NCBI GenBank assembly: GCA_900617105.1 | Contig: UYFQ01000285.1 | Location: forward strand, 1-54,854 | DNA length: 54,854 nt | DNA from: Hydrurus foetidus | Lineage: Eukaryota | Reading direction: 5' to 3' | Part shown: piece by piece, positions 3,531-54,013 of the stretch | Position numbering within the stretch: position 1 is the first letter of the stretch | Layout: every line of letters starts with the position of its first letter | Program-made: the position numbers and the translations under genes | The notes under the pieces: model-generated | Database searches by the model: none | Told to the model about the DNA's origin: nothing | Seen by the model: only the letters and a program-made list of their open reading frames with translations

Positions 3531-3533
3531 TAA

Positions 3534-6014: not shown

Positions 6015-9000
6015 GATTCGACTGTGTGACAAAGCCTGTAATCTAAAGTACTTCTGTCGATAATGTCTTACTTACGTGCAGAGTAACTGTAGCGCAACGC
6101 TGTAGTATCACAACACAGTGGTAGAAGAGGTGACTTCACATCCACACAATAATTAAAAAAGTCCAGGGTCCAACAGGGAAGGATTTCTTTATACGGAAAC
6201 ATGATAATATAGTACGGTATTCTCTAAATTCAGTTCGAAATTGCGATAACTTCGATAACTTCGAAGGAAGAAGAAAGTGTGAAGTGTTAATCACTCGTTT
6301 CCCAAGTGATGCACCCGTGCACCATTAGATGCACAGGTGCATCAAAACTTTTCTACGTATACCGGACAAGTCATATCGATCCTTACGGTTCTGAAGATTC
6401 CAATGCATTCACCTGTTGACACTGTCTGGAGTCAAATTTTACAGTCCAACAATTGATGACATATTCATCGAGATACGCTGCGTCAAAGTTTTCAAAACTG
6501 GTCGATTTGAGATTTATCGCCAACTTGGCGATAGCATGCCGAGGAAGCTGCAAAGGAAAAAGATTGGACATTAGGAACTTGACAGGAGCTGTAGTTGAAG
6601 TTATTGTACGTTTAGGGTTGTCGAGCCACCTCCAGCTGCAGCCGACAACATTCCACCTCCGGCACCTCTCGCCCAGTTAGCTAGAGCACAACCACGCTAA
6701 GGTCCTGGACAAAGAAACCTCATAGCCTACAACGACGAAGAAGATGATTCTGATGTGGAATCGAATTATGGGAGCAGGTGAATATCTTTTGGCGATCTTT
6801 GGCGATTTTTGGAAACGATCGATTTCGCGTCAGTGAAGCTAAAAATTCGCACGATTTCCTCAGGTATTCATCAGATAATGATTCTGAAGTTGAAAATGGC
6901 GGTAACACTCGGATGGTAGCGCTGTGGATCAGGAAGATGAGGAATTAGCCCCTATCCAAGGGCCCGCACCGAATCCATGGCTGAGGCCTAATGGCCATCA
7001 GTGATTTGAAGATGGAGAAGTTTCAGTTGATGTCGGACTACTGAATAGGAGGACAAAGCTTATATGGCCTGGAAACGTGAACTTACTCGGTGATCCGTTG
7101 CCTGTGAGAACTAAGCTTGATTAATTTCGACTCTTTTACCTGATGCAGCTGAATCTTGCGACACTGGAGATGACCAATGACAAATCGGACCCAACTGGGC
7201 GAAAGCCAAGGTTGACTGAAGACGAGCTTCTGACCTATTTTGGGATCAGATTGAATATGACGCTTGATAGTAAGCGACTTGATGTGAGGGAATACTGAGA
7301 GGATGAGGTGCGACCCGGATCCACCTTTACCCCCGACTATCGAAGATTTGGGATGACAATATATCGATTCCCAGCGATATCAAAATGCTTGAGATTCTCC
7401 GATTATGATGAGGGAATTGTGAATTCAATTCAATTCAATTCAATACACGACCTCATTCAATTCAAATCTAATAGTAATGTTACTGATTAGGACCCCTGGA
7501 TTCCGATACGGCCGTTCATTGATGCAATCGCAACAACGCGTCGGCTAAGGCATTTGACGTGCCAGGTAAGAAGACAACCGGAAAATGGAGTTCTTGCATT
7601 GCAATCAACCATCTTGCTACCATTGAGGTAGGGTTTTGTTTCATATACGTGATGTTCAGATGATCCGTATAGATTGTGAACGTACGGTCTCTGATTAGAT
7701 AATCGAGCTGTGTACAATAATAGAATATAGCATACGCTTCTTTCTGTATAGTTGACCACCTTATTTGTGTTGGTGTCAATGATTTGCTTATGAAAGCAAT
7801 CGGTTGCCAAATCGTATCAACCACCTGGAAAAGAATACCGCCGATTCCAAAATCAGACGCGTCTGTATATAATCTGATATCCAATTTATTGTCATCAATG
7901 AAGTACATTAATGGACAACGAGATATTGCGATCTGTGTATCGTGAAAGCTGTTGGTACCCGCTTGAGTCCATACAACGGCCGAACGTTTCGGTGCACAAT
8001 GATCTATCATATCTTGCATTGGTTTAACCAAAGAAGAATGCATTGGTACAAACTGTCGAAAATAGTTCGCCAGTCCCAAGAATGATCTTAACAATGTTAA
8101 GTTCTTAGGCATAGAAAAGTTTAACACTGTTTCTATTTTCTCCTTTGACATGGATAAACCATCTTTGTCAACCACTCTGCCTACGAGGGAGGCCGAAACG
8201 GCACTTTTTGGCTTTGAGTCTAAGACCCTTAAGCCTGAATCTTGCAAAGACTTTATTCAAGTCTTTAAGAAACTCCGCTACACCCTTGCCATATACTATA
8301 CAATCGTCGAGATACATCTCACAACAATGATAGATAAGGCTATAGAGGACCGCCGTTACCATCTGCTCTTGAAAGTAAGAGGGGGCACGACACGGACCAA
8401 AGGGTAGTCTCGTAAACTGAAAGACCCCCGCAAAGCATATAAACGCTGTGAATATGCGGTGTGCGGGGTGTAACGGTGCTTGATGGTAACCCGCGGTTAA
8501 ATCCATCACATCAAAAATATCTGGTTTTTTATTACTGATCCTCTCAGAAAGATGTTTGATATTCGGCAGGGGAGAAAAGGCGGGAGTCAGGCACTTATTA
8601 AGTGGCCGGTAATCGATGCAGGTTCGAAATTTGCCGGGTGACTTAGTTACGATTACAGGATGACTGTAATAAGCAGCATCTGAGCGCTCTATAACCCCGA
8701 CGCAAGCATCTCATCGAGATTCTCCTTAAGAGCAACCTCTTTAGTCGATGACTGGGGACGTACCGGCGTACGGTTTTCGTCTTTTTCCCACAACTCAAGT
8801 GGAATGTTAATCTCAAAAGGTTTGAGTGACGCTGGTTTCTCAGCTAACTGATCACTAAAAATGTCTGAATATTCAGAACAGAGCTCTCGGAGCTTCCTCT
8901 GAAAGCTTTCATCTCCCTCAAAGGTAATCTCTTTGAGGAAATCCTCTGGCCCCTTGGGCAAGTCATCTTGACTAGGCTTCTCCGCTAAGAAGGGTGCGAA

Positions 9001-12000
9001 CGTATCTATCTTGCCATCGTCAATCTCGTCAACTGAGAGTGCGACACCACTAGGCCATAAAGGCTCAGTGACATAGTCGGGGGTATCAGAGTCCCCAAAG
9101 GTATGTGTAAGGGTGGGAATCTGGTCGCCACCTAGGTGCGGTGTATCACCCGTACGTTTTGCGACAATAGGAGTGACACTATTCAGTCGCTCACAACTTA
9201 CATCACCACAGGAATTTCGGGTCGCGACTCCCTCAATATCCATTTGGGTATCGTTACATGCCGGCATTGAATGGACAAAAGAGACGTTTTTCTTCAAAGA
9301 AGATTGACCATGCAATATGCTCTTCTTGTTTGGATACTCTTGTAATCCATATGTTTCCCTCTTTTTAGAGGAAGGTTTACCGCCTGGATACTTTAGCTTA
9401 TCGTAGTGAGGCGTGATAGACTCGGCTTCGGCTGTATCAGGTTCGGCACCCAACGCTATCATACGACGCGTATACTTATGTTGATACATGGGATCAAGTT
9501 TCAACAAAGCTTCCTTCTTATCGAGTCGCGTTTGCGTGCATCGCTTTTCTTCTTATTCTCCGCGCTTAGTTCTGGCGAAATGCCGGAAGCAAACGGAGTT
9601 AAGGTCCAAAAATCATATTTATTTACCGTTTTACGGCTAAACAAAATTTAAATTTCCGATTTCCTGTTCACCCTTATGGGTAAGCTGATGCTTTGGCATT
9701 CGCCATCGTAAGAATGAAAAAGGATTTTTAAATCGCAGATTTCGTTATTTAAATAACATTGGCCATCAAGACCGCTACAAACAGTTATGGCTTGTAGAGC
9801 AGGATAACAGAGGTGAGTAGCATTTAATTTTTCTAACATAGTAAAGGATATAAAATCATCGGAGTAATTTGCGGTGTCCAGCACGGCTTTCCCCACGGGA
9901 CACAGCTCGCTAGCTGGGCCAGTCCTTTCCTTATCCTCTACGATAACAGTTACGTTGATGTGGTGAGAAGGAAGGACAGATGGATCATGCAAACATTCTT
10001 CACGAATAATTACATGTGACTGTACTTCGACATGAACATCCATCAGATTATGGATATCATTGTCAAAGACAGCAGCCATGTCATCAAAACGAAGGTTCTT
10101 ACCTTGATCCTGACCTGAACTGGAGGAGGTGGGAGGGTTGTTTCCCTGTGGGGAGTTGTATTTATTTCCCCTGCCACCGGATCCACGACCCTGGTTTTGG
10201 TTTGGATTGGGGTTGTATCCTCCCCTCTGCTTACCTCTACCCCTTCCTTGGTTGCCATGGTAACCACCTCCCTGGTTACCTTGGTTCCCCTGGTTTTGGT
10301 TATACCTCCCTTGTCCCTGATTGGAACGATCTGAACCACCAGAGGCATTGGGGTTGTTACCGCCACCATGGCTGTTTTTGGGGCGCTTGTTGCCGTTAGA
10401 CATCAAGTAGGGTTTAGAACCCTTAGGGAGTAACAGAACGCGATCTTCGTATCCTGGGAGTACGAGATGTTGTTGCCATTCTGTGAACCCTACCGCGGCC
10501 CAAGCCATCCCCAATGTAGAATCCTCCCAATCAGCCGAATGGTCTGTATTGGAGTCGGAGTAATACAGAATGGGGCACTCGCCCAACATGTGCGACTTAG
10601 ACCCGCACGAGCGGCACTTCCGTCGACGCACGGACAGCGAGTCCGTGCTGAGTCGGAATGTACGAGCCTGTTGTACGCACAGTCGTCGTGAGTGATCTAG
10701 ACGTCACGGATGGAGTAGGTGAGGGTACCTTAACACTTGCTCTGCCTGTCTCTTTCTTACCAACCTCAGGCGGATGCGCTAAAGGAGGGAACGAGTACGC
10801 CACATCCGGGTTGCCGTAGCTCTTGATGAGGTTCATCATCGACCTAGCCTCAGCCAGAACCTGACCAATGCGTAGCATTGTCTTTAACCACGGCCACGTG
10901 TTAGGTGGTGAGGTGTCAGCTGCTTTCGCTCTCAGGTAGTCTTGTTGAATTTGACTACCCTTAGCTAGGCGCTTCTCCAGGATCTGAATGAGCTTAGCAT
11001 GCTGAGTCGCAGTCAGGGGGCCTTTGGACCTCTCATAGTTGCTCACAAGTTCATTGTAGCGAATCAAAGTGGTATTCTCATGATCGTGGTTAGCAATCTG
11101 GTAGTGGAAGGGAATTTGGCTAAAACTCTCCGCCAAAGTACACTCCCCCAAACCGTTTGGACAGAAGTACTTCACTACAAGAGTGGCTACCTTAGTCACC
11201 GATAGTATGGTGAACCAATCATGACGTTGTCGACGATCGATGATGTTGAATTCAGGATCGACTAAGATTTTGAAGTTCAAAAGTTCGATTGCCTGCTACT
11301 GCATACAGTCAGTCAACTTCATGTTGGGGTTTCGTTGTGCCTGCTCGTAGAACTCAATGGCATCAGCTTCATCAATGAAGTTGTGTCTGAGCACGAACAC
11401 CTCACTCTGGAGTTGCATCGTCAGCGAATCGTTTGCTAACAACGAGCTGTTCAATGGGATAGACTCATTGAGTGCAGCCAACGCTGCGAGGCGAGCAATC
11501 TCTTCCTCATCAGGAGGTGGAGGAGTTCGAGGTGCGGCGGCGGACATATCGCTACTAGATATGTATCTCGCTTAAACACAGCAGAGATCAATCCGCCGTT
11601 GTCAAAACAATTTTGCAATGGGTTTGCCTTGTTCGCTAACGGGTGCTGTAACGTCAGTAACAACGCGTTAAGGAATTCTAACCAACTCTTGAACTGAAAA
11701 GTCCAATGGCGTCAGAGCCAAAATCTGAGTGGTAAGAATTTTGGGTACCCAAAAAGGTAGGAGCTGCTACTTTTCAGCGACAAGAAGACGTCTCTTGACT
11801 AATCTTATGTCTTCGGTGATGAATCTGTGATTCAATCGACCGGCGGAGCAGATCTTTAATGAATCTCGGGAAGGATCTTTCAACTTCGACCGAAAACTTA
11901 AAGGATGGAATAGCCCAAGCTTAGGGATTCCAAGAAAGCAGGTATGCTGACTTTCTCTAACTTAAACTACAGTTCTCTGAGCTCGAAGCTGCAAGAGAAG

Positions 12001-12101: not shown

Positions 12102-12113
12102 AATAGCGCTATT
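12102..12113 (-). promoter_or_regulatory. 12-bp palindrome at the PBS position of gypsy A (AATAGCGCTATT)
   Basis: Perfect palindrome overlapping the last LTR base; no TGG-type tRNA PBS. Confidence 0.8.
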
Positions 12114-12319
12114 GTAGTCCGGATGGAAGAGAAGGTCGATAGAACGGTAGGCGGAAGTTAGTTACAGGCTATGCTAGACGCTAGGTTAACTTCTACGAGT
12201 CAGCTGCAGCTAGCTAGCAGTAGCGCTAGAGATGTAAGTGTACTATAGGCGGAAGGATCGGGTGGATCGTGAGGAGGTCCGGTAAGGTCCGTAGGCCCGG
12301 TATACCCGGTACGACCACA
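12113..12319 (-). repeat. 5' LTR of gypsy A (207 bp, TG...CA)
   Basis: Minus strand reads TGTGGTCGTACC...GGACTACA; homologous to the LTRs at 16222-16427 and 37909-38095. Confidence 0.9.
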
Positions 12320-15612: not shown

Positions 15613-17950
15613 GAGTGCGTTTGGTAATTTCCAGTTCATATTACACTGGATTGGAAAATGCGACGTATTGCAAACGCCCAGTGGATTCGTGGGTCAAGTG
15701 TATGACGAGTAAATTGTTCGCCGAACACAATCGATCTTAACCATCGAACAACATCACTGCAGCACAACAATATAACCAAACATTACGCTAGAGCACAGCA
15801 TGGATGAAGTTGGTAATTACGACGTCGATACCATCACTCTTGTAGCTCTAATTCTGCTCGATGAGACTGAGCAACGTGGGCAACCTGTTCCGCGGCACAA
15901 CTCGGTGCTGACAGGACAAATCTACCTACAGGAGCTGCTCCTGACGGAGAGCAACGCACGGATTCAGAATATTACGAGGATGGATAGACTTACATTCCAG
16001 AGTTTGCTGCTACTTTTGGAGACTCACGGAGGTTTGAGCAATTCGAAATACGTTTTAGCGGGCGAAATTTTACTGTCGTTCATTCTAGTCCTGACAGGCA
16101 ATTTGAATAATATCGTAGCATTCTGGTTCAACAATATCGTTACTAGTGCATGAAGTTGCAGAGACTTTCAAGCGCTGTCAGCAATACTTCTGGTGCCCTG
16201 TGAAGAGATATGACCCAACACTGTGGTCGTACCGGGTATACCGGGCCTACGGGACGTACCGGACCTCGTCACGATCCATCCGATCCTTCCGCCTACAGTA
16301 CACTTACATCCTTGCACACTGCTAGCTAGCTGCAGCCGACTCGTAGAAGTTTATCCTAGCTTCTAGCATAGCAACTGGAACTAACTAACACCTACTTCTC
16401 TATCGACCTATCTCTATTCGGACTACAACACAACCTGAAATCGCACAGAATCCGGAGTTCGGTCCGTACTTTGCGAACTGTATTGGTGCTCTTGACGGCA
16501 CGCACATTCCTGAGATCGTATCGTCTGCTGAACAACGACCGTTTAGGAATAATAAGAAACAAGTGTCGCAGAATGTTCTGGGTGTGGCGAACTTCAGTCA
16601 AACTTACAGTTATGCTCTAACTGGTTGGGAGGGTTCGGCGCACGATAGCCGAGTGTTGAAGGACTCAAAATTGAGAGGTCTCCCGCTTTTCCCTAGCAAA
16701 TACTATCTTGGAGATGCAGGATACGCGTTGCCTTGGCATGTCTTGACTCCATACAGAGGAGTGCGCTATCATCTTACGGAATGGAGAATAGGTAATGAGG
16801 GACCCCAAAATGCTCAAGAGGTTTTTAATCTTTGACATTCTTCCCTCAGAAACGTTGTCGAAAGAATATTCGGTGTAGCTAAAAACGATTTCCAATGCTT
16901 GTTGCTATGCAATCTTATTCCTTCCTTTTTTAATGTGACCTAATATCATCAAGTCTATGATGACGATTTTGATGACATTCAGCTAAGTAATGATGATCCT
17001 GATCATGATGATGTCGAAGTAGTTGAAATTGTCGGTAATGCAAATCAGCTAAATACATGGAGGAATGGGATAGCTGATGCAATGTGGGAAGATTTGAACC
17101 ATTTGAATGCTCATCATGATTGATATTACTGTTACACATTTCTCATTTTATGATTCAAAGTCGATCAAATCTAAACAAACTTTAATGCTCTCAATGATTT
17201 CATCATCTTCTTGAGCCAGAAATATTTCGTAATTGTCCTTCAAGTACTTCTGGTACTTTAGCTTCTGCGCGGGGTTAGTTTCGCTGAGTATTTGCTGTTG
17301 AAAATGTGGAACACCTTTGAGAGATCGCTTTCTTTACTGTGTATGTCGATCTGTTTTCTTTGGTTGGCCACAATTCCTTCGAAGAACTTGTTCTTAGATT
17401 TTCTTTCTGGTTAGGCCTTTCTTTCAATTTCCTGGCCTGTACTGGCAGTGGTTTGACGCCGGCCAGGACCGGCTTATCTTCGTCACTCGGCTTCGGCTGT
17501 TTCTTTGACACATTATTGATTGGACTGCAGAGGATGACGTCTCCCCTTGAATACTTCTGTCCAGCGAGAGATGAGATCGCTTTGCCGCTGTCGTCTTTAG
17601 AAGCCTTTGACATTGCTGCTTATTGAACTGCCTTCCAGAGGCTGCATTGAGATCATCTACGATGTGTCTCCAAGCTGCTTTTTTAAAGCCTGTGTCAACA
17701 AAGGTGCCTGACTCAACTTCCCTCAACATTGCATTGATAAAGTAGCGTCGATTGTCATCGTTTCAATCTGCCTTAACATTGCCCTTCTCTGCCATTGTGA
17801 AATGCCAGCATGTGCAAGATGAAGTCTTGTTATGTGATACTGCACAGCTATCAAGATACTTCAGCGATTTGAAGAGCTCCGGAAATCCAGAAAAATATTT
17901 TCGACAAAATAGCCGAATCTGGATTCGAGTGGATTGGGAGGAGTTTCCTG
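15613..17950. mobile_element. Decayed PIF/Harbinger element 1 (transposase + strand, Myb/SANT partner - strand); right end not found
   Basis: TAA followed by a PIF-like end GAGTGCGTTTGG. HARBI1-like remnants at 15800-17100 (CIGALDGTHI, GWEGSAHDSRVL, YYLGDAGY, LTPYRGVRYHL). Convergent Myb-like remnants at about 17170-17794 (DTGFKKAAW). Confidence 0.82.
16222..16427 (+). repeat. Solo LTR of the gypsy A family inside the Harbinger transposase
   Basis: TG...CA, 206 bp, with 4-bp TSD ACAC at 16218-16221 and 16428-16431. Confidence 0.92.
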
Positions 17951-18099: not shown

Positions 18100-19702
18100 G
18101 ATTTTTCCTAATTTTTCCTCGATGGAGGTTTCATGGTTTTAGTCAGTAAAAATCTGACATAATTACGTATCGAGGCCTCGTGCACATGTAATTGTGTACT
18201 CGGCACCCAATTTATCTCTTCGACCGACACACCACAATGTCTATTTTGTATAGATTTTTATTCTACTTTTATTTTCGTATAAATTTTTCCTTTTTAATCT
18301 TTCCCGTTCATCTCTGTAGTTATCATTAGTTATATATATATTTGTACAAAAACGTGGTGGTCGTGTCATAGATTACTTTTCTTCGGAAAAATGTCGAGTT
18401 CCGGGGGACAAACTTGCACCTACCAAATTTCTAACCCCCTCGATGAAAATAAGACAATTCCACTTACTCCTGGATGAAAATAAGCCCATTTCAACACAAA
18501 TCTCCCACTGGGCGTTAAAAATAAGTCAAATTTTACCCCTAATTTCTTACTCTTTGATAAATATAAACCAATTTAGAGCCCAACTTACCTGGAAATTTTT
18601 TGTGGCTTCGGCGAGATGGCTCACAGAAGGATGAAGAAGCATCCTGCAGTGACTATATATTCACTCTACTGCGTTGTCTTCCATCACCATCCTGCTCAAG
18701 CGAAAGGTATCTTCGTAGTGGCCTTGAACCTCTGATCGAAATGAAGGATGAATCCTCAAGGGAGTCGGTAAAATGATGTTCTGTTGCCTGCTGAAATCCA
18801 GAATCCTATCTATCACGCAACTAATCAAAAATTTATACAGTTAACTTCAGATATGCCTTCCGATCTGCACACCAACCACCATCTGAGCAGCTAACATCAT
18901 GACAGCTCTCCGAGATACCCTCGGAAATGTCAGCACCTTTCAGAGGTACCAACGCAAATTCATGAGGCTGTTGGACAATTCCGCATTTTAATCTGACGGA
19001 CAATGTGTATGCTGTCCACGTAGCTTACAGAAGCTAAAACAAGAGGACGGGTTTCTTGGATCAATTGCAAGGGCTGTTGATCAGTTTGCGAGAACTGCAA
19101 ACTAGGATGAGCGGCTAACGGCCACAGATCGTTCAGCAACAAGAGAGTCGCTGGACAGGATGTTTGGCTAAAAGAAGCCGGTTTGGGTTTGGTGTTTTGT
19201 TTAAAGATTTAAAGATGTGAGAGGTGTATCGAAGAAGCTGACTACGAGAGTTGCAAGTTGAAGTATTCGAGAAACCAAAAACTGGTACCGAAAAGCTGGT
19301 ACCGAAAAACCTGTGGCTGCAAGCAATGTGTACTATGTACGTACATACATGTAACGTACGTGTGAGAATGCAATATAGTGGAAACTATGAAATAGTGGAA
19401 GCTATAACACCACCCCTTTCGCGGTTAAATGTGAGACTATGGGAGTTAAAAAATGAATAAATACAAAATATGTTGTTACATCTCAGTGAGTTCGCAAACA
19501 TTGTTGTATCGATGTAGAAGCATAATTAGATATGAGGTAAGAAAAATATTACTGGCGGTTTCATTTTAGCAGTAGTTATATGTGAGAATCGAACTCACGA
19601 CCTTCAAAGTGTGAAATTAAGATTCGATAGCTTCACCGAAACCACTTTAATATGAACAGGGAGGGGACCTTCATTTGCCTAGAATCATGTTTTAGTTTTC
19701 AT

Positions 19703-20066: not shown

Positions 20067-23000
20067 TCAAGCACCCTTGTGGGCTTTTGGAGTAGTATCG
20101 ATACCTTGTTGAGGGAGGTAATCGTGTCGGTAGGGTAGTGGGATTTTATTTGTATGCCCTATCTTTTGTAGGTACTCGTGGAGGGCCTTGACAAGTCGGA
20201 GCGAAGTCCAAGGCTCCCAGGAATCGGAATCGGAGGTGTAGCCGTGCCAGTGGACGAGGAGCTCAATTGATTTCAGGTGAGTCCATTTTCCACGATGAGC
20301 GACAATTGATTTGACGATGTATTCTTCTCGATCAAGTAGTCCAATCTTTTGTGCTGATCTCATTGTGCCGATGTAGGGGGAAATGCGGTCGGTGTGGAAG
20401 ACGTGTTCTGTATTGAGCTGAGTGTGCAGGCAGGTAATATTATTTCCGTCTTGTGTGATTACAGTGTATGGGCCTAATAGTTTTGGTGCAAGTTTTGATG
20501 ACCGAAACGCCTTGTCATGTTCTTTTGGATTCCACAATATGAGATCGCCTTTTTGATATATGTTTTGATTTGTTGTGGATGCTTGACGTTTTTGTCGCAA
20601 TTCGTGTTGATATTGTGTTGTGATGGCACGGACTATTGACAAATTTATGTCTAGTTGATTAACGTATTCACCGTAGGAATGACCTGGTGGAAGCGGCGGT
20701 GGTAGTTGAAAGCGGGCATGATCCATAGTACCGAACTTCAGCTCTGTTGGAGCGAGACCGCCAAGTTCGGAATTTGGTGTGGTGGCTATTGCATGATTGA
20801 TAAGAGGTAAGATAGTGTCAGATGCCCACTTATGAGTGAGTCGTTCGTCATGAACTAGACGGCGTAAGTGACCCATGAAGATACCATTTACATGTTCTGT
20901 TCCGTTAGATTCGTGACGTTCAATAACTGATATACGATGGGGAATACCAATCCAAGAGTTGAGCTGTTGGACGACTGTTGCAGTGAATGCACTGCCAGGA
21001 TCAGAGTATAGTGCATCATAAGCACCGAAGGTACAGTAATGTTGGAACAGAATAGTTGCGACAGTAGGAGTAGTGTAGTCGCGTACTGGATAAGCACGGG
21101 GGAATTTTGTGTCATGTTCTACAAGTAGTAACAATCCGATATAACCATCTTCGTCAGGAGGTGTAACTGTAACATGATCCATACCGACGGCGCGAACGTG
21201 GTGAAGGATTGTTTCAGTAAGTGAAGGAGAAGGTACAGTGGCAAAAGGGATTCGATCCTTTTGGCAAATCGGACACTCAGCTACAAGGTCTTGGATGGTG
21301 CGGAGTGCGATGCCATGTCCAGGATAACGTTGACAAAGAGTCAGGTAAGTTCGTTTGGCTCCGTGATGGAGTGATCGATGACCGTGAACAGATGCGAACA
21401 TTTCTTGAATACTGAGTGTATTCTCCGATGACGATAGGGTTGAAGATGGTGTCGATTGAGGATGCATACGGGATATCCAGTCGGCAACACCATTTTCTTT
21501 ACCAGGGATATGTTTGATCTGAAAGCTGTAGCTTTGAAGGAGGACACGCCAGCGTATGATGATAGGAACAAGGCTTGTCTCCATCCATACTAAATTGCGA
21601 TGGTCAGTTTCTACAACAAAGGTTTTGCCGGTTAAGTAATACCCGAATTGACACACGGCATAGTAAATTGCGTATGCTTCTTTTTTGTAGGTATCCCAGT
21701 TTACTGCGGCGCCGGAATATTTATGAGATGCGAATGTGATCGGCTGATGGATGATGGTACCGGATGAATCAGTGAATTCTTGAAAGAGGACAGCACCCAC
21801 AGCGTTGTCGGAGGAGTCGGATCTGATGATCCAGGGAAGGTTGTAGTCTGGGAAGTGTAGTATGACTGAAGCTTGGATTGCTGTCTTGAATGTTTCGAAT
21901 AGGTTGCGATAGTCTTTTGGCCATGTCAGAGACTTCCAGTCAAAAGACACGGCAGTACACTCGTATAAATCGGATGCCCATGAGGCATAGTTGGGGATGT
22001 GAGTGTGGAAAAAGTTTGCAGCACCTAGAAAGCTTTGCATTTGCTTTTGCGTTGTCGGAAAGACAAGAGCACTGATGGCATCTTTCCGAGACTGAGAGAG
22101 GCTCCAGGTTCCTGGATGTACGTCATAGCCGAAAAATGTTACATTTGTGGAACCAATCCAAGACTTCTTCATTTTGAGCACTAGTCCATGCTCGCGGCAA
22201 CGTCGGAGAGCAAGGTCAAGTTTCTTGGCTGCATCAGCGTAGTCAGAGGCGAGGATAAGAAAATTGTCGAAGATGACAATGATCCAGTCTTCATAGTCGA
22301 TAAATACTCGGCGGACGATTGATTGGAGGATTCCTGATGCTGGTCCTACACCTTCAGGAAGGAAGAGGGGACGGTACAGACCCCATGGTGTAGATACAGA
22401 CAGAAGGTTGGAACTTGCTTCGTCAAGTGGGATTTGATGAAATGAGTTTGTCATGTCAAGATCTACAAAGACTTTCCATCCGGCTGCTTTTGCTAAGGAT
22501 TGCTGTACATGTGGAATGGGTTCCTGTGGAATGGATATGAAGGGGTTGATAGGCCTGTAGTCACCACACAAGCGGATGAATGGTGGTGTGGCTTTAGGTG
22601 CAACTACTAACGGGCAAGCGATTGGTGAATTTGATTTCACGTAGAAGTACGTTTTCATCCGATCAAATTCTGCTTTGGCATGTTGGTAGAGCATATCGCG
22701 AATTGGGCGGGTGTGAGCTTTCAGTAACTCAGGGAGACCAGGTTTTGTGGTCAGATGGTATGGAGGCATATGTATACCTGTCCAGGTTTGAGGAACAAAG
22801 ACATCATATGCCAGGTCAGACGTGAGAAGGCGATAGATGTTGGGATGAGCGGCACTCATTTCTGGCATGACGTGAGTCTCTAAATCTTTATTGTATTCAT
22901 GACGAGCCTCATCTTTTGAGACAGTGAGAAGCATGAGTATATCGTCAGGGAAACTTGTTGGATCAGGCGTCTCGGATTCTTCGAGTGCAATTTGATCAAT

Positions 23001-23861
23001 TGGTTGCGACCAAGGTGGTAGGATATCTCCTGATGACGGTTGAGTCAGTAATGATGAGAGTGCATTGTGCTGTAGTTCGACGCGGTTGTCAGCATACACT
23101 AGTCCATGCCGCGGGTGTGAAAGGACATCAGTGCTGGAACCGTCATGCAGAGCAACAGCGTAGATATCAGTATTGGAGCTAGTACAGATGGCACGCTTTC
23201 GGAGATCGTACGATCGACTGTGGGAACTAAGGTTATGCGCTGTGCGAATTGTGTTGCCAAGATGAGCACAAGGTAGGGATTCACGGATTGTGGCGGTTAA
23301 AGCGTGAAGATTAGTTCCTATAGCTCCGATTGCAGATTTTCGAGAAGAAGCTATCGCATCAGCGAATACATCGTAGAAAGGTCCGACAAGGTCGACGAGA
23401 CCAATGATAAGATCATGACTGAGATCCTCAAGAACACTATACCATAGTATGTGAGCGTGATCGTTGCCAGAGGAATCAGTCAAACAGACCAGGAGTTGGA
23501 TTTCAGATTGAACTGCAATGTGACGTGCATCACCAAGGCGGACAATGCGATCCGTTGGTCGAGTAGCAAGCGTATGCGATTTAGGTAGGCTGAGAACTAG
23601 TGTACCGGAAACAAAGTTACTGCCTTGTGCGCCAGTGTCCAATAGACCACGAGCGAAATGGAATGGGTTGAGTCCGTCCTTAGATTGCACTGAACCAGCG
23701 CGAATGAAAGGCTGACAAAGAGCTTGTGCGGGTACAGACGTACTAGAAGCCAGTTGTGAGAGGAGTGCTTGAGAGAGAATAGCTTCAGGATCAAAGACTA
23801 TGGAAGAAGGGGCGAGGTGATCCTCTGACTGTAGGGAAGTCAATGAGGGCCTCGCAATTCC
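20067..23861 (-). CDS. pol: Pol of gypsy B (PR-RT-RNase H-IN-chromodomain), in frame after the gag TAG
   Basis: LLDTGA protease; RT with RLCGDYR, DMTNSFHQ and IFDN; RNase H SDSSDNAVGA/EAYAI/ETDH; integrase HHCC, SDPGSAF and GPY; chromodomain LVHWHGY...DSWEP. Confidence 0.93.
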   Translation of the reverse strand, partial: GIARPSLTSLQSEDHLAPSSIVFDPEAILSQALLSQLASSTSVPAQALCQPFIRAGSVQSKDGLNPFHFARGLLDTGAQGSNFVSGTLVLSLPKSHTLATRPTDRIVRLGDARHIAVQSEIQLLVCLTDSSGNDHAHILWYSVLEDLSHDLIIGLVDLVGPFYDVFADAIASSRKSAIGAIGTNLHALTATIRESLPCAHLGNTIRTAHNLSSHSRSYDLRKRAICTSSNTDIYAVALHDGSSTDVLSHPRHGLVYADNRVELQHNALSSLLTQPSSGDILPPWSQPIDQIALEESETPDPTSFPDDILMLLTVSKDEARHEYNKDLETHVMPEMSAAHPNIYRLLTSDLAYDVFVPQTWTGIHMPPYHLTTKPGLPELLKAHTRPIRDMLYQHAKAEFDRMKTYFYVKSNSPIACPLVVAPKATPPFIRLCGDYRPINPFISIPQEPIPHVQQSLAKAAGWKVFVDLDMTNSFHQIPLDEASSNLLSVSTPWGLYRPLFLPEGVGPASGILQSIVRRVFIDYEDWIIVIFDNFLILASDYADAAKKLDLALRRCREHGLVLKMKKSWIGSTNVTFFGYDVHPGTWSLSQSRKDAISALVFPTTQKQMQSFLGAANFFHTHIPNYASWASDLYECTAVSFDWKSLTWPKDYRNLFETFKTAIQASVILHFPDYNLPWIIRSDSSDNAVGAVLFQEFTDSSGTIIHQPITFASHKYSGAAVNWDTYKKEAYAIYYAVCQFGYYLTGKTFVVETDHRNLVWMETSLVPIIIRWRVLLQSYSFQIKHIPGKENGVADWISRMHPQSTPSSTLSSSENTLSIQEMFASVHGHRSLHHGAKRTYLTLCQRYPGHGIALRTIQDLVAECPICQKDRIPFATVPSPSLTETILHHVRAVGMDHVTVTPPDEDGYIGLLLLVEHDTKFPRAYPVRDYTTPTVATILFQHYCTFGAYDALYSDPGSAFTATVVQQLNSWIGIPHRISVIERHESNGTEHVNGIFMGHLRRLVHDERLTHKWASDTILPLINHAIATTPNSELGGLAPTELKFGTMDHARFQLPPPLPPGHSYGEYVNQLDINLSIVRAITTQYQHELRQKRQASTTNQNIYQKGDLILWNPKEHDKAFRSSKLAPKLLGPYTVITQDGNNITCLHTQLNTEHVFHTDRISPYIGTMRSAQKIGLLDREEYIVKSIVAHRGKWTHLKSIELLVHWHGYTSDSDSWEPWTSLRLVKALHEYLQKIGHTNKIPLPYRHDYLPQQGIDTTPKAHKGA

Positions 23862-25676
23862 CTAATTTGATTTCATTGGAGGGTAGAAGGTTTTCCCATG
23901 TAAGGGTTCGAATTTATTGGAACTCTGATGTGTCGTGAGCCCTTTGCGGTAATCAGGACGAGGTTGTGTATTTGAGGTTTGGGACCATGGTGGTAGCTGA
24001 CCATGAGCAGCAATCTCTCGTCTGCTGAGCAGATTAAAGGAAGCCAGACAACGCTCCTGAGCTGCCGTTGAATGATCGTTCGTGCAATTCTTTGACTGGG
24101 AGCATTTTCCGAATACAAACAGCTCACAGCAATAACCACGAAAAGTAGCCGCAATAGCAGCACGTGAGGGATTGGTGGTAGTGAGCACAGCTAACGAAGG
24201 TTCGTCTGGGGAGGATGGATTGCGTTCATTAATTAAATCAGTAGAATTCTGATGGCTGTTGTAGACGGAGTAGTCAGAGTCATCTATGTCGTCATAATCA
24301 TAGTCTTCGTCAATTTTGTTATGACCAGTATCATCATGATTGTCTTGGTGATCCATGTTTGTGTCGGCTGAGGAGGCAAGCGCGGAAAAGTTGGTACGAA
24401 AATGATGACGGGTCTTCGAGATCTCAGCAACACGTTGATGAGATGGATTTAAGGCTGGTATTTGATGTCTGCTGTGAGACTCTCCTTGAGTGGAACGCAA
24501 TTCATTCCAACGCATAGGCGTTAATTGGGAATCAAAATCTTGCCGGGCTTCACTGTTAGAACGTCCTTCCATGAGTTTGAAACGGACGAACTTGACAGCC
24601 GACTCAAGCGTTTTATGCTTGCTTAAATCATCTTTGCCTAGCCATTGTAGGATTGAATCTTTTTGACTTCCGAGTGATATAATCCAGAGTGAGATATGGC
24701 CAGGGCTATCTTTTGTACCATAGGTACCAACGGGCATTTTGGCAGCGTTGTTGCTGAGCTTAGATGTCTCCTCAGATAGGAGGTTGTACAGACTGAGCAA
24801 ATCATTGAGAGATCTCATGAGCGGGCCGTAGAATATTTTCGAGAAATTCTCGGTGTTGATGTCGGGGCTTTGTGGAATTCCTTTGCCAAGGAATAGAATG
24901 AGTTCCCGCGAATACAACTCCTTTGTGCGTGGTCTCGACGCTTCGATTAGAATCTGTTGAACAGATGGATTTGTGAAGGAAAGCCAGTCTTCAACCATTA
25001 CTTCTTCATACTCACGACCATCCACTTGTGACTGTCGGAAACGGAAGGAGTTCCAGTTGGCTACGACATGAGGCCTTAAGTTGTAAGCTACCATGTGAGC
25101 CATCTTGATGTCGCGACCAGGATACTTTGAAGCTAGTAGCTGCATCTGTTTTGCAAGGTATTGAAGTCCTTCTAGTGAGGAAACTTTCAATTCCTTATCG
25201 TAGACGATATCATTTTGCAATATCTGGATGCGTGGTTGTTGGGAGGAGGTTTGCTTATCATCTGGAGACAATGATTGCCCAAAGAAGATGGTGGAACGTC
25301 GGTCGCTTTTCGAACGATCCGCAACAGGTGTCTCAATATCACCAAGAGAGTATGGACTTTCATCGCCAGGCTTCATTGATAACGAAGCGATGGCTGCACG
25401 CAACTCTGTGATGTCTTCTCTGTTGGATTCTTGATTTCTGACACTCTGCTGACAGAATTGCGTAACCATGGCGCGGAATTCGGCATCGTCGTCATTCTTT
25501 CGAATAATTGGAGTTTCATCTTTAGTAGTAGGCTTGCCAGGATCCAACTTCGGCGAGTTCTTCGGAACAATAGGAACTTCTTTCGACATGGATTTCTGCT
25601 TCGAAGAAGAGAAGGATATTTTTTGTACAAATGTTTTTTTGCTTCGTGAAATGTCACTGAAGGAGTTGAATCTCAC
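23862..25676 (-). CDS. gag: Gag of gypsy B, with a C-terminal CCCH-type zinc finger
   Basis: 604-aa ORF directly after the 5' LTR and leader; motif CCELFVFGKCSQSKNCTNDH. Confidence 0.85.
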   Translation of the reverse strand: MRFNSFSDISRSKKTFVQKISFSSSKQKSMSKEVPIVPKNSPKLDPGKPTTKDETPIIRKNDDDAEFRAMVTQFCQQSVRNQESNREDITELRAAIASLSMKPGDESPYSLGDIETPVADRSKSDRRSTIFFGQSLSPDDKQTSSQQPRIQILQNDIVYDKELKVSSLEGLQYLAKQMQLLASKYPGRDIKMAHMVAYNLRPHVVANWNSFRFRQSQVDGREYEEVMVEDWLSFTNPSVQQILIEASRPRTKELYSRELILFLGKGIPQSPDINTENFSKIFYGPLMRSLNDLLSLYNLLSEETSKLSNNAAKMPVGTYGTKDSPGHISLWIISLGSQKDSILQWLGKDDLSKHKTLESAVKFVRFKLMEGRSNSEARQDFDSQLTPMRWNELRSTQGESHSRHQIPALNPSHQRVAEISKTRHHFRTNFSALASSADTNMDHQDNHDDTGHNKIDEDYDYDDIDDSDYSVYNSHQNSTDLINERNPSSPDEPSLAVLTTTNPSRAAIAATFRGYCCELFVFGKCSQSKNCTNDHSTAAQERCLASFNLLSRREIAAHGQLPPWSQTSNTQPRPDYRKGLTTHQSSNKFEPLHGKTFYPPMKSN

Positions 25677-25787: not shown

Positions 25788-25799
25788 AAAAGTACTTTT
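25788..25799 (-). promoter_or_regulatory. 12-bp palindrome at the PBS position of gypsy B (AAAAGTACTTTT)
   Basis: Perfect palindrome overlapping the last LTR base; the LTR boundary is fixed by LTR-LTR comparison and the TSD. Confidence 0.85.
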
Positions 25800-26689
25800 A
25801 TGCTGTCCACGTAGCTTACAGAAGCTAAAACGAGAGGACGGGTTTCTTGGATCAACTGCAAGGGCTGTTGATCAGTTTGCGAGAACTGCAAACTAGGATG
25901 AGCGGCTAACGGCCACAGATCGTTCAGCAACAAGAGAGTCGCTGGACAGGATGTTTGGCTAAAAGAAGCCGGTTTGGGTTTGGTGTTTTGTTTAAAGATT
26001 TAAAGATGTGAGAGGTGTATCGAAGAAGCTGACTACGAGAGTTACAAGTTGAAGTATTCGAGAAACCAAAAACTGGTACCGAAAAGCTGGTACCGAAAAA
26101 CCTGTGGCTGCAAGCAATGTGTACTATGTACGTACATACATGTAACGTACGTGTGAGAATGCAATATAGTGGAAACTATGAAATAGTGGAAGCTATAACA
26201 TGTGAACGCCAAGTCACTTTCTTACCCTCTTGCACCTGAATTCTTATCGCCGTCCAACAGAACATAATGAATTGCTGCCCAATTTCGAATCACAGGTTTC
26301 AGCGTGGACTGCCTTCCCTGTATGAGAGGATGGAGTATCTGATATGCCTCTATATCAACGCGGGATATAAATCTGGGCGACGTGAGTACCTTTCTCATGC
26401 GTGCTAGCAAAACTTACCTGGCGAAATGGCACTAATCGCTGATTACTTTTGACAACCAGGTCTCACTGTGAGAGCCTTATTGTTTGAAATGTGAAGGAGC
26501 CGCAGGCGCATTTGGAATCGACGGCGTACTATAAAGTGGACATTGTGAGTGAGATGAATATTTTTCTTGAATTCAGTTACGCTCTCAATATTTCTCCTAA
26601 ATTCAACTGCACTAACTCCTATTTTAATGGCAGGAGGAAAATAAATAATTTTATAAAAGCGTTAAGTAATTTATTTTTCATCTAAACGA

Positions 26690-35010: not shown

Positions 35011-36450
35011 TGGCCGACTTGAGATATCTGTTGTGATGAGATACCGTTGATATATTGATACTATATCGATGATTGCTGAACTTTCTATGCAATCGCTACC
35101 ATGTGAGTCAGACTGTGGAGTGAAGCGAGCTACCTGTTGGCTGCGGAAGCGCAAAGGAAAGACTGGCTGATGGAAGTGGTCTCGGAAGACGTGTTTACTT
35201 TCAACGATCAAGTAGTAAAACAACTGGCGATGATATCAGAGAAGACAACCATCAAAGAAGCAAAGCAAAGCATCCATTGTGCATGAAATGGTGATCGCCG
35301 AAGTGGAAACATATTCAGCGAATATTCAAGTTGGCGATTGAGCAATGGGCGGAACCCTCGCTGCTCATGAAATCGGATGCTTGGTGGAAACCGGATACCT
35401 GGTGGGAATCCGGATGCTTGGTGGTGAAAAACCGGATGCTTGGTGATGGCCCCGAAGGGGGATATCGCTAGAAGAACGATGAGCGTATGTACACAACAGT
35501 GTATGGCGGTGTTTTGGGTGAGGAAGCGCTACACTACTTGTGACATGTGAATGCTAATCTACAGATGAAACTATGCTAACAGATCATGCATGAATATGCT
35601 GGACTGACAGACGGAACTGTAGATCTGGAGTATTCTACGTTCTTTGAACCAAGTGCGAGGTCCTGCAGAAACAAGTTGATTTTCTTGCTAGATCCCTGTT
35701 TTTCAAGTACTGATATCTCCGATAAGATCCAGTGATTCTCGTATGAATCTTTTGTATGATCTCTCTGACCGAATTCGCACATAAAATAACAGGCTAGACA
35801 ATGGAAAAAGTCCATTTCATAGCACTCGAAGTCAGATAGCATAGATATGCCCTTCTGTTTAGATGTCTTGGACTGAGACCAGTCGAAGTACAAATTCTCG
35901 AGTACACCATCCCAGGAGGACAAGTTCCAGGTTGCTGTTGCTGCCTCTTCAGCGCGGCCACTAGCGAGGAATATCATGACCAAACTAAATCTGCGGTATA
36001 TCGCATCAGCAGAGTTGTGAGCGAGGTAGGACATAGCAACTTTCTTCATCATTTCCCGACCCACAGGGGGTGCCTTATTCGAAATTTTATCTCCTTCTTC
36101 GATGCAGCTATCAATTTGAAAAGCAGTCGTTAGCTGTCATATTTTAGTCATTAGAGTTACACATTTGAACCGTACCGTTTGACGATTTTTCGCTCAATTC
36201 CACAGCGCATCTTAGTGTACCAGTTCCCAGGAATGTCAAGCTCTCTGAAAAAGGGGTCACCTAGAAAATTTGATGTTTGTTAATCATGCTCATATACAAT
36301 TTGGATGATACTGCAAGCTCGTTGATACCTTTGAATAGAGTATTTTCCCCTAGAACCAATATGCATCCCATGTAACCTAAAACTGTGCTCTTCGACAGAG
36401 GAGCTTTTGTAAGCTTTGCTTTATACACTGATGTCAAGAAGTAAGCAAAC

Positions 36451-37559
36451 TGTGAGTTGCCACGGGTTGGCACGAAGTCGGGAGGACATATCGTGGATGG
36501 CCAAATTAAGATGGAAAGGTTTGGTTAGTAAATTCGATTTAAGAATTAGAAACTGGCACGGAGGCCACAAAGCATAAAATCATGTTGCACATCATTTCTA
36601 CCTGCCGTACAATAATAAGATCTCAATCGTCATGCGCATGCAATTTGACTGGCTCTCGTAGATTTACATCTACGTTGTTGTATAGGCGAGATAGTAGCTA
36701 CTCAACTGTAAATATGACGTTTGTACTAAAAGCTAGACTTTTGGTACCAAGTACCGGATAAATACTATACAGCTGTGGTTATTATGGTGTAACAATGGCA
36801 ATATACGTGATACGAATTGGCATTGAGGAAGCGACTTGGTGCACATTGCACACCAATAACAATCTACAAAATGTGTTTACTTATGATATCCTATCATGCT
36901 AATTGTTGATTATACAAATGGTAATATACAGCTATAACTAGCACTTATCGCTGTTATATACCGACACACCCCGTAATCATCAATTGCTTTATATTATTTT
37001 CTTAGAAGTCATCATGTCGTCTCTGATCAAACAATCGCTACCATGTGAGTTGCCACGGGTTGGCACGAAGTCGGGAGGACATATCGTGGATGGCCAAATT
37101 AAGATGGAAAGGTTTGGTTAGTAAATTCGATTTAAGAATTAGAAACTGGCAAGGAGGCCACAAAGCATAAAATCATGTTGCACATCATTTCTACCTGCCG
37201 TACAATAATAAGATCTCAATCGTCATGCGCATGCAATTTGACTGGCTCTCGTAGATTTACATCTACGTTGTTGTATAGGCGAGATAGTAGCTACTCAACT
37301 GTAAATATGACATTTGTACTAAAAGCTAGACTTTTGGTACCAAGTACCGGATAAATACTATACAGCTGTGGTTATTATGGTGTAACAATGGCAATATACG
37401 TGATACGAATTGGCATTGAGGAAGCGACTTGGTGCACATTGCACACCAATAACAATCTACAAAATGTGTTTACTTATGATATCCTATCATGCTAATTGTT
37501 GATTATACAAATAGTAATATACAGCTATAACTAGCACTTATCGCTATTATATACCGACA
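36451..37559 (-). mobile_element. TRIM-like non-coding LTR element
   Basis: Two 516-bp LTRs (36451-36966 and 37044-37559, 4 differences seen), a 77-bp interior with PBS TGGTAGCGATTG and PPT-like TTACGGGGTG, and 5-bp TSD CAAAC. Confidence 0.93.
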
Positions 37560-37829: not shown

Positions 37830-38095
37830 TAAAACAAGGTTCCCCGGAATAAGAAAACCGTTCCCCGGAAAAAGGAAGTTTCATAGAAAAAGAGATAAGT
37901 GGGGGGAATGTGGTCGTACCGGGTATACCAGACCTCGTCACGATCCACCCGATCCTTCCGCCTACAGTACACTTACATCCTTGCACACTGCTAGCTAGCT
38001 GCAGCCGACTCGTAGAAGTTTATCCTAGCTTCTAGCATAGCAACTGAAACTAACCACCACCTTTCCTACATCGACCTACTTCTATCCGGACTACA
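37830..38095 (+). repeat. 3' LTR plus polypurine tract of a truncated gypsy A-family element
   Basis: AAAAGAGATAAGTGGGGGGAA immediately precedes TGTGGTCGTACC...GGACTACA (37909-38095); no TSD. Confidence 0.85.
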
Positions 38096-47187: not shown

Positions 47188-50100
47188 AACTGGTGGAGAA
47201 AATGTTGCGCTTCTTCACAAATTGTCGACGAGCCGTAGTTTATTCTATGGTGGGGACACCAAGGCCGGGAGCAGAGTTGTCAATGCACTTCTGGAAGGTG
47301 TTATTTAAGAACAGTTGTGAATTCTCTTCTTCCCAGCAACAGCCGTCGCATGGGCTTTTGGCTCTCTTCCTTTTTGGTTTTTGGAGGTCTCGAACCCACA
47401 AACCCTCATTTGTCCCCCTCGGGGATTGGTGGTCTGTAATAATAAAAAGGACACATCTCGCAGAGAAACTGGGTAACGTTTACTTACAATCGGCTTCACT
47501 TGCGTATCACATTGTTCCAGCATGGAACAATGCCCAAATTACAATTTGTTAATTAACTAGTTTTGGAAGGGCATAACCCAAAACAAAGGTTAAACAATGT
47601 ATGAACAAAATGTGAAAGGAGGGAAGTGTGCCGAGTGAACTCCTCGTGAATGATTATGTCAGATTCTTACTGACTAACCTCCATAAAAAACTCAATAAAA
47701 GTTGAGGCAAAATTTTTAGGAGTAATCTTCATAGATATCGTTCATGGATTCTCAATTACAGAGGGGGCGCAAGACGGAACTCTCTTGGAATGACATTTAA
47801 CATGTTGTTTTCGCGCAGATACTTATGGAGTTGATCTGTAGAGCGCATGGACTTCCAAGGTTCCCATGAACTATGTGATGAATCATAGTTCAACCACTTG
47901 ACATAAAATTTCATTATGGATGGAGCTTTTTTATTTCCAATATGTGAAATAACTGCTTCAATGAAAAATTCCATGTAGTCACGACGAGCTGTTCCTGAGT
48001 CGGATTAAACTTAAAAAGTTTTAATTGACTAGCATGAACCTCACGTATTTTCTTCATGATAAGATTCTGAATAGTGTATTCACTTTTATCAAAGCGTATA
48101 ACTTTGAAAGGGCCAAGCCACTGACAGTGTACCCTAGTCTCTGTTCCCTTAGGGTTGAGAGCTAATACATAAGAATCAATTTAAAATACTAACTGAAACG
48201 GTTCAGTATTAACTGAAACGCGTCTCGCATCAGCAGTCATCAACTGGGTTCTAGCCGCAGTGTTGAGTTGTTGTTGTATAAGCAACATATTTGCTATAAA
48301 AGTCGACGCTCTAGTCGGTAGTAGATTTGGGTCAGGAAATCTAATCAAGATACCTCTATCCAGGTTTAATTGATTTCCGAACAGCAGACTAGCTGGTGAA
48401 GCTCCTGTACTAGAATGTACAGAACTGTTTATTATTCTCTGCACAAAAGGCAGGCAAAGCTTATAAGCATTAAGATTTGTTAAATCAAAAGTAAACGCAC
48501 GTAAGTGTCGATTAACCTCTTTATTAACTCTTTCCACAATGGCATTCTCTTGCTTGGAGTATGCCAGGGAAGATTGTGGGGGTACCCGTACGGAGTAAAA
48601 ATTCCCGTACGGTATCATTCATGAAATGAGATCCCTGGTCTGATCGGATCATGCTGGGTGCACCGAATCTTCCAAAGAATTGGAGTAAACATTCACATGC
48701 AGAATGTGCTGTATTATCAGCACACCAGTAAAGTTCAGTCCAACGAGTGAACGAGCAAATCATGACTAACACATATCCCCGTCGGGGTATGGACCTATGT
48801 AGTCAATGTTGACTGTATCAAACGGTCTATATGTAGACGTTGTGTATTTGTGAATGTGAACCGGGATTTTGATCACACTCATCTTTTGACAGCAAGCGCA
48901 GGTGCTGATAAAGTCCCTAACATGGGCTTCCATGTCGAGCCATTCTTCGTCTAAACTGGATAGTTTACTAACGGTACGAGCAATGCCACCATGTCCCACC
49001 ATGGAATTATGACACATTTCGATTGCCTCGAGTTGTAACTCGGCAACTGGTGCAAGTTCATGCAGAGCAGATAGATGAACTTGTAGTTCTCCCTCTTGAG
49101 TAGGTGGATGAAGAACAACTAATTGTTTTAAATTAGGACATAGTCTCGAAAGGGCATCGGCTATGAAGTTGTTTGTGCCAGAAACATAGTTTACTGCATA
49201 ATCAAGCTCTTGTAGAGCCATTGACCAACGGTTAACCATTGCAGATGGATCTGAATTGATGAAAATAAGATTCTTGTGATCAGTATGAATCATAAATTTC
49301 CTATCCCTGAGGAGAGAGTCCAATTGCTTGCAGCAATAGTAGATAGCATAAGCTTCTTTTGAATGGTTGACCATTTTACTTGTGTTGCGCTAAGCGACTT
49401 ACTCACAAATGAGATTGGATTTTTAACTGAATTCACGACTTGGAATAGTACTCCACCTATTCCATAATCGGATGCATCGGTAAACAGCTCGATGGGAGAC
49501 ACTTCATCTAAAAATGAAGAAGCGGGCAGCGGGATATTGCTTTTCTTATTGCAAAGAAAGACTTATCTGCCTGTTCGTTCCAGTCAATTTTAGATTTTTT
49601 ACGCCCTTTAGGGTCGATCATCTTTTGAAGTGGAGCGACTATGTCGGCATGAAATGGAACAAAGTTCCTGAAGTAGTTCGCCAAGCCCAATAAACTTCGT
49701 AAAGAAGTAAGGGTCATGGGTTTCGGGAAATTTAAAACCGTTTCTATCTTCTCTTTAGACATAGAAATGCCTTGGGAAGAGATTTGTCGACCGACATAAT
49801 CGATTTGGGTCATACCAAATCTACATTTCTTTGCTTTAAGCAGTAAACCAAAACAACGAAAACGTCGAAAGACTCGTTCTAGTCTCTCCAGGAACTCATC
49901 CTGACCTCGTGCAAAGACGATACAATCGTCTAAGTACATTTCACATGAAATGTAAATGAGTCCATTGAGGACTATAGTCGCCATCATCTCTTGGAAGTAA
50001 GAGGGGGCTCTCCGAGGACCGAAGGGGAGTCTGGTGAATTGGTATACACCATAATAGCAAATGAATGCAGTCAGGACCCTGGATGCATGATCCATAGGTG

Positions 50101-53100: not shown

Positions 53101-54013
53101 TAATCAGCAGGTAAATTTGACATCAGCTCCAAATTTGAATTTGAGGGTTCTCGCTGTGTAAGCGGTATTGTTTGGTCTCTTTGCGGAACAGAAGCACGTC
53201 GCAAAGGCTGTATAGGTGATTTCTTCACCATGAATTGGGGGTATCTACGAGATAATTCGACTCGTGAAGTCGAAAATATATTCGGGTCTGTTTCGTATGG
53301 AAACAGCGATTCCGCCAACTCGTCAAGCGAGGATTCAAGCTCAGCGAGATGCACTCTCGGAATGTTTTTGCAACCAAGTAGATTGCTTGGGTTTGAGGTG
53401 GTTGGAATCACCACCGGGAACGTCGACGTATAAGTCGGTGCAGAAAGTGAATTAAAATCAGATGAAACAGACAAGAAATCGTGGGTTTCAAGCAAATTTT
53501 GCAAGGCTTCTGGGGAAACCTTGGTATACAGCGTAGCGAGCTCAAAAGAACTCGCTGAACAACTGGTCTAGGCTTAAAAGCCGATCTTCTATGCTGAAAA
53601 GCAGAAGCTACCGAGTTAACTCGGGGGTTGTGTTGGTGTGTGGAGTGAGAAGATTGGGGGTTAGAGGCGACTAGATGCGATGAACTCGCTACTGCTCGGC
53701 TAACTACTTGAGGAAAACCAACGGACGATGGATTTCTCGAAGTAGGAGTCGAGGGTACGATGGATTGCTGCGACGGAGAGTTGTCTGGCGGACGATTCGG
53801 GTCGTCGTCGGCCCAAGTATTCTCCGGAGTTGGGCAGCGATTCTCGATTTCCTCGCGGATAGCACGAAGTTCGGCCAGAAATAAACGATCACGAAGGAGT
53901 GGGACTTCTTGGAAGCCCTCCAGTGGAGCGATACGATGGTTTCTGGGCGGTGATGGATGAAATGGACGATGGCAACTACGAAAACGACGGTGGAAACTAC
54001 GATGGAATGGCTG

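Follow-up and report, generated by a model that had tools for sequence, protein, structure and literature searches.

How do three gypsy elements of Hydrurus foetidus start their reverse transcription, if a palindrome stands where the primer-binding site (PBS) for a tRNA would be expected? The question is raised by a stretch of contig UYFQ01000285.1, 54,854 nucleotides in length and referred to below as the window, in which an earlier note had reported a perfect 12-bp palindrome in each of the elements gypsy A, B and C. All three palindromes were found at the positions claimed (Table 1). Each was said to start on the A that closes the 5' LTR, and for B and A there is independent evidence for the LTR end. 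In gypsy B it is fixed by the LTR pair, by a 4-bp target duplication (TGTG on the plus strand) and by an empty-site contig present in two public runs; the LTR terminates in ...CATA and not in ...CA. For gypsy A the evidence comes from a pair of related LTRs, both of which diverge directly past the same A. The LTR end of gypsy C was deduced from its inverted termini (TGTAGCC...GGCCACA, 6/7) and from the 3' LTR of a relative, L046, which has the same termini; no second LTR of gypsy C was detected within the window.

The probability of such a palindrome at a fixed site, given previously as about 4^-6 per element, was approx. 2-3e-4 when the local base composition was taken into account. Since the window contains 66 palindromes of at least 10 bp, the position of the three is informative, while their existence alone is not. 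The statement that none of these sites starts with TGG, but that the copia element and the TRIM of the window do, was also upheld: in both of the latter TGGTAGCGATTG, a putative tRNA PBS, lies 3' of the 5' LTR.

Table 1. Features of the window that bear on the primer-binding position; positions are those of the window.
Feature	Position	Strand	Remark
Gypsy B palindrome at the PBS position, AAAAGTACTTTT, 12 bp	25788..25799	-	5' LTR ends on the A at 25799
Gypsy A palindrome at the PBS position, AATAGCGCTATT, 12 bp	12102..12113	-	
Gypsy C palindrome at the PBS position, AGTGACGTCACT, 12 bp	54014..54025	-	
Control copia, PBS starting with TGG	35090..35101	-	element 29496-35609
Control TRIM, PBS starting with TGG	37032..37043	-	element 36451-37561
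Gypsy B 5' LTR	25799..26200	-	402 bp, TG...TA
Gypsy B 3' LTR	19008..19409	-	preceded by a purine tract
Gypsy B gag ORF	23862..25589	-	first ATG at 25589; in-frame TAG precedes pol
Gypsy B pol	20067..23861	-	open frame of 1264 aa: RT, RNase H, integrase, chromodomain
Gypsy A 5' LTR	12113..12319	-	
Gypsy A gag-pol, in pieces	7516..11295	-	RT (YLDD) and RNase H; lacks its 3' part
Solo LTR of the A family	16222..16427	+	ACAC target duplication; fixes the LTR end of A
3' LTR remnant of the A family	37909..38095	+	follows a purine tract; fixes the LTR end of A
Gypsy C 5' LTR	54025..54212	-	boundaries from inverted termini and the 3' LTR of a relative
Gypsy C gag-pol, in pieces	48766..53567	-	RT (YLDD), RNase H and the zinc finger of the integrase

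The three elements, all of them on the minus strand, were assigned to Ty3/gypsy on the basis of the order RT-RNase H-integrase, the LTRs and the target duplication, and the closest relative of solved structure is the Ty3 RT (E 4e-41). The chromodomain (PF00385), which is the mark of the chromoviruses, was found at the integrase's C-terminus in the B pol and in most of the listed relatives of B and C. The RTs of B and C are only about 25% identical, those of A and C 66%. Gypsy B has LTRs with 99.25% identity, a target duplication of 4 bp (19004-19007 and 26201-26204) and all four acidic residues of the RNase H; it is intact, was inserted recently and is suited as a test case.

Several further properties of these elements were recorded. 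LTRs ending in TA instead of the canonical CA occur in 8 of the 24 representatives of the survey described below, with target duplications of 4 bp; besides the window LTRs at 25799 and 19008, such ends were seen in L004, L005, L013, L014, L016, L027, L033, L038 and L076. The U3 of the gypsy B LTR contains a 14-bp palindrome (26125-26138 and 19334-19347), and similar GTAC-rich tracts are present in the U3 of relatives. Gag and pol share one frame and are separated by a single TAG or TGA, both in the window (23862-23864, minus strand) and in all 21 loci listed (20 of the B clade and L078), and this arrangement suggests that the stop codon may be passed by readthrough. The truncated gypsy A is flanked by a duplication of about 245 bp of host sequence (7282-7526 and 12320-12559, 94.7% identical), which suggests a rearrangement or an assembly join. 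The RNA contigs of one metatranscriptome run (X19) end exactly at 25788, the 3' edge of the B palindrome; an RNA cut at this position was considered and rejected, as the assembly has an overlap of 30 bases there that stems from a variant branch at 25817.

The RT of gypsy B carries the motif IFDN in place of YxDD (residues 530-533 of pol). In B and its 120 listed homologues [I/L/M]FDN, in one case IYDN, occupies this position in 121 of 121 sequences with an invariant Asn, and the FDN motif is likewise present in every RT row of the B clade taken from the loci, while the A/C clade has normal motifs of the YxDD type. Gypsy B was inserted recently despite this motif. The same change in Ty1, D211N, is described as keeping the in vitro polymerase activity and abolishing transposition (PMC2148107, from the available part of the paper). 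Since the palindrome is present in both clades, the FDN change is not required for it.

In order to see how general the palindrome is, the LTR/leader junctions of related elements were surveyed. An alignment of B with 29 of its 120 listed homologues led to 44 metagenome loci, one of 30 of the 120 listed homologues of C led to 22 loci in genome bins, and 21 further stretches were drawn from five of the bins of the C search, giving 87 loci in total (L001-L087). A candidate junction was present in 38 of them and these were scored; the unscored loci start inside gag or pol, stop inside the LTR, or are unrelated. L015 was dropped, as its 12-mer starts with T and sits after pol on a contig that begins inside gag, and L067 was dropped because of an inverted duplication upstream. 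A perfect 12-mer or 10-mer palindrome was found in 37 of the 38 candidate junctions outside the window, thus the enrichment in related elements, which the earlier note had made a touchstone of its proposal, is borne out. The single miss, L074, has an 8-mer only; it was kept in the count, although it may not be a junction and perhaps lies inside gag. The palindromes start on an A that follows a C or a T (37/38 outside and 3/3 inside the window), and together with the window's three they comprise 24 12-mers and 16 10-mers, found in clades with an RT identity of about 25%.

As the palindrome served as a guide when the junctions were chosen by eye, independent checks of the LTR end are important. 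Only four families have a fully independent end, namely B, A, L038 and the family of L030. The element L030 is complete, possesses both LTRs and a 4-bp duplication, and has a pol 34% identical to that of B; behind its 5' LTR stands a 10-mer palindrome whose register is that of the window elements. L021, L022, L025 and L038 align to 3' LTRs and diverge from them directly after the same A. In shuffled windows of 500-800 bases a comparable palindrome appeared with a probability of 0.01-0.17; summed over 24 representatives, which are not independent families, this gives log10 p = -33.6. A scan of viral collections yielded no relatives, a DNA search of five bins with the gypsy A LTR gave no match, searches with the LTRs of two relatives gave no new flank, and the matches in the protein atlas were generic gypsy clusters only. 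The bins labelled bacterial hold many eukaryotic gypsy contigs (L045-L055, L057-L065, L067-L087), and one of these loci, L050, bears motifs of the TRIM LTR of the window; these bins are contaminated by algal repeats.

The junctions comprise 15 distinct sequences, 13 12-mers and two 10-mers. For the analysis of covariation 21 of the 24 12-mer junctions were aligned without gaps. In this alignment all 126 of the 126 pair cells are Watson-Crick; changes affected both sides in 30 cells, and one-sided changes leading to G-U were not observed (0). Five of the six pairs covary, and these include the central pair, which occurs in three types and cannot form in a hairpin. The symmetry stops at the terminal A: one pair further out, only 5 of the 21 junctions are still complementary. 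A quick RT tree of 37 rows, 26 of them labelled, which covers these relatives only, indicated that the palindrome changed at least 11 times among the labelled rows. Neighbours in the tree are separated by one compensated pair (L013/L014, B/L011, L016/L033), the 10-mers are confined to one RT subclade (support 84), and AATATTAATATT is shared by both deep clades although near relatives differ. The proposal that self-complementarity and not the sequence is conserved is therefore supported by the 15 sequences, the compensated changes and the uniformly Watson-Crick cells. In the 10-mer subclade a second palindrome, which is GC-rich and has the core ACCGGT or CACCGGTG, lies about 50 nt past the 10-mer and after a variable hairpin (L021-L023, L030, L031, L034, L035, L037, L038); it is a candidate for a separate dimer signal.

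The known types of priming were then compared with these junctions. None of the 41 candidate junctions has a PBS starting with TGG, which excludes priming by a tRNA 3' end on the grounds of sequence; no tRNA genes were found within the window. Among the 17 LTRs with a provisional start that were examined, a 10-11 nt complement of the PBS, as in Tf1, was absent from the 5' LTR. The best Watson-Crick run was 4-7 nt in 16 of the 17, which is at chance level (5 nt in the intact LTR of B), and 8 nt in A. The previous claim that the LTRs contain no full copy of the palindrome thus holds for the complete 12-mer and fails for the 8-nt core of A, TAGCGCTA, which lies in the A LTR 115 nt upstream of its end and was matched by 1 of 60 shuffles. 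In L013/L017, L064, L071 and L075 there are LTR matches of 8-11 nt that exceed most shuffles but occur at unrelated positions. The lack of a consistent LTR partner agrees with the earlier view that cis pairing of the Tf1 style is not evident, and such pairing is not a general feature of these elements. A downstream second arm, corresponding to CHSeq2 of the fungal GalEa elements, was not detected in any of the 41 junctions (best run 3-6 nt, chance level).

The start of minus-strand synthesis sets the LTR end. Since the palindrome is locked to the last base of the LTR, it most likely concerns the primer. If primer and PBS share one sequence, the PBS must be self-complementary, and since the LTRs lack a copy of the palindrome, the partner RNA of a dimer is the simplest source of the primer. 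We therefore consider it somewhat better than an even chance that the primer would be the element's own primer site on the co-packaged RNA, released by a cut at the palindrome's 3' edge, that is, a Tf1-like self-priming acting in trans. In such a scheme two genomic RNAs would pair palindrome to palindrome in the particle, helped in many families by helices between U5 and leader on either side. A nuclease, most plausibly the RNase H of the element, would cut one RNA at the 3' edge of the palindrome or one base inside it, and the new 3'-OH at the U5 end of the partner would start the minus strong-stop DNA and so fix the LTR end. Tf1 uses an 11-nt primer released by an RNase H cut; a cut one base inside the palindrome would leave 11 (or 9) paired bases, similar to this length. 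The plus strand would then copy the primer. As the primer sequence equals that of the PBS, the second strand transfer would need full Watson-Crick symmetry at the level of DNA, and a mutation would be copied to the mirror position. Such mirroring would explain why two-sided changes are frequent and why G-U pairs are absent. Ty RNAs are reported to be dimeric in particles (PMC4974528, available part).

For the pairing of two PBS, as suggested before, the predicted energy of the homodimer is -6.8 to -19.3 kcal/mol and that of the hairpin 0 to -1.8 kcal/mol, thus the homodimer is predicted to be far more stable. The AT-only variants would form a weak duplex (-6.8 kcal/mol). The U5 and leader flanks paired above the median of cross-family controls in 22 of 28 cases and fell into the top decile in 8 of 28 (binomial p about 0.005, with families that are not independent); against shuffles 7 of 28 reached the top decile, as compared with 9% of 150 control palindromes. 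This flank pairing is similar to the helices on either side in the Tf1 pretzel, but several families, B among them, show it weakly or not at all. Location of the palindrome in an exposed loop was not predicted (mean unpaired probability 0.49 vs 0.47 in the flanks). The weak AT-only duplex, the lack of a predicted exposed loop, the patchy flank pairing and the 8-11 nt LTR matches count against self-priming in trans. The donor's tail of U5 and R would also have to be removed or ignored, and cutting of both RNAs would leave no PBS-bearing template. As regards the dimer-primed reading of the earlier note, the conserved symmetry, the exclusion of a tRNA 3' end, the lack of general cis pairing and the predicted stability of the homodimer stand, but its remark that it knew of no description does not, as discussed below.

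Other explanations of the palindrome have to be weighed against self-priming in trans. It could serve dimerization or packaging only, like the retroviral DIS or the Ty1 PAL, while a protein, a random RNA end or another site provides the primer. Palindromes have been proposed to mediate Ty1 RNA dimers (PMC4974528, available part), and in-register homodimers formed in 20 of 26 cofolds here, as is expected for any palindrome. However, nothing would oblige a packaging signal to start on the last base of the LTR and to end there, RNA-only pairing usually tolerates G-U, which was never seen, and no alternative primer site is evident; this explanation is considered unlikely. A palindrome that is cut at its 3' edge, folds back on itself and primes in cis, with the partner RNA needed only for later strand transfer, would predict the identical register, and its central symmetry could still serve the second-strand transfer. 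The hairpin, however, has about 0 kcal/mol for most variants and a 4-bp A-U stem would be a poor primer, so that such a snap-back seems distinctly improbable. Strict Watson-Crick symmetry would suit double-stranded DNA too, and the palindrome might thus be a dyad bound by a protein dimer (Gag, RT or a terminal protein that acts as primer) or a signal at the level of DNA. Since protein sites conserve letters, whereas five of the six pairs vary here, and AATATTAATATT recurs in both deep clades whereas near relatives differ, we regard this as very improbable.

To each of two further explanations we attach hardly any weight. Cis self-priming from the transcript 5' end as in Tf1, the palindrome being incidental, is suggested by the chromodomain, which the Tf1/sushi group shares, by the 8-nt core in the A LTR, situated downstream of a TATA-like motif, and by the few relatives with matches of 9-11 nt when G-U is allowed. 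Yet the chance-level runs in nearly all LTRs, B included, speak against it, both sister LTRs of A carry other letters at the 8-nt site, the LTR matches lie at differing positions, and symmetry is not expected from priming in cis. Priming by half of a host tRNA or by another self-complementary small RNA has a precedent in the half-tRNA priming reported for copia lineages, in the available part of the source. Apart from the lacking TGG, however, the 15 palindromes are linked by compensated swaps and each would need its own host RNA; moreover the centres TA, CG and AT cannot, by our reasoning, all fit an anticodon loop with its invariant U33.

Other repeats were noticed in the window as well. An ORF at 1666-3027 (minus strand) encodes a tyrosine recombinase (PF00589), which we take to be probably part of a Crypton-like or DIRS-related element. 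Long inverted repeats at 3327-3531, 14017-15606, 17982-18099 and 27444-27576 are probably DNA transposons or MITEs; the arms of the second (14017-14554 and 15069-15606) are 538 bp long and 99% identical. Among the matches to the ribosomal protein SA of the window, a Dinobryon entry (76%) is the sole one with an organism name, which weakly places the host among algae of the chrysophyte type.

The remark of the earlier note that it knew of no description has to be corrected with respect to the palindrome. [quoted passage not shown] 2017, PMC5445492); in the available part of that paper the palindrome is compared to Tf1 and to retroviral dimer initiation sites and no priming mechanism is proposed. 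It is echoed in the accessible part of a paper on bivalve TRIMs. The likeness to the present elements comprises the absence of a PBS, a perfect palindrome including the terminal A of the LTR and the absence of a U5 partner. The differences are that the GalEa elements are copia, whereas the domain order here is that of gypsy, that essentially two variants, CTGATCAGT and CTAATTAGT, face the 15 sequences found here, and that the second arm CHSeq2 follows the palindrome in GalEa and is absent here. As CTAATTAGT is described there as confined to low-GC families and differs from CTGATCAGT by G-to-A and C-to-T changes, we suspect that this pair of variants reflects RIP and not covariation. A search of the open literature, with subscription journals, Repbase and GyDB outside its scope, gave no paper that describes such palindromes for gypsy elements or deals with dimer priming, and Helenus (PMC10886601) has no palindromic PBS. 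The palindrome in gypsy elements is a real, conserved and covarying feature with a published parallel in fungal copia.

With Tf1 and the sushi group, of which the pretzel structure is summarised in the accessible text of a fission yeast preprint (bioRxiv 2022.12.06.519325; also PMC6317226), the present elements share the chromodomain gypsy type, the lack of a tRNA, flanking U5 helices as predicted in part of the families, 9-11 nucleotides that would be paired after the LTR end and a primer that is likely cut from the element's own RNA. In contrast, Tf1 is primed in cis by the paired 5' end of its transcript, for which no LTR partner exists here, and the PBS of Tf1 is not palindromic, as far as the available part of PMC5445492 goes; the 4-bp target duplications found here are a further difference. 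Skipper of the dictyostelids is likewise a chromodomain gypsy element without a tRNA PBS or an LTR complement, and its unexplained priming was suggested to be of an unknown type (Spaller et al. 2016, PMC5006619, available part), but it has a polypyrimidine tract where a palindrome is present here. The retroviral DIS and the Ty1 PAL are also short palindromes able to pair two genomic RNAs; according to the accessible part of PMC4974528 they accompany a tRNA PBS and are situated at a distance from the LTR end, whereas here the palindrome is at the PBS position itself.

Self-priming in trans would make dimerization and priming one event and the element independent of host tRNA, and annotation tools based on the PBS would systematically miss or mis-score these families. 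The PBS-less lineages GalEa and Skipper are without a priming explanation, and the 15 covarying palindromes make this gap sharply testable. The literature distinguishes three types of primer in LTR retroelements (Neumann 2019; PMC6317226, available part). The chances seem to us evenly balanced that a fourth start would have to be added to those by whole tRNA, half tRNA and cis self-priming, in which a cut genomic RNA primes its partner and the self-complementary PBS rewrites its own mirror image in each cycle, a mode which, ancestral or convergent, would be common to several deep clades of protist gypsy elements and the fungal GalEa copia.
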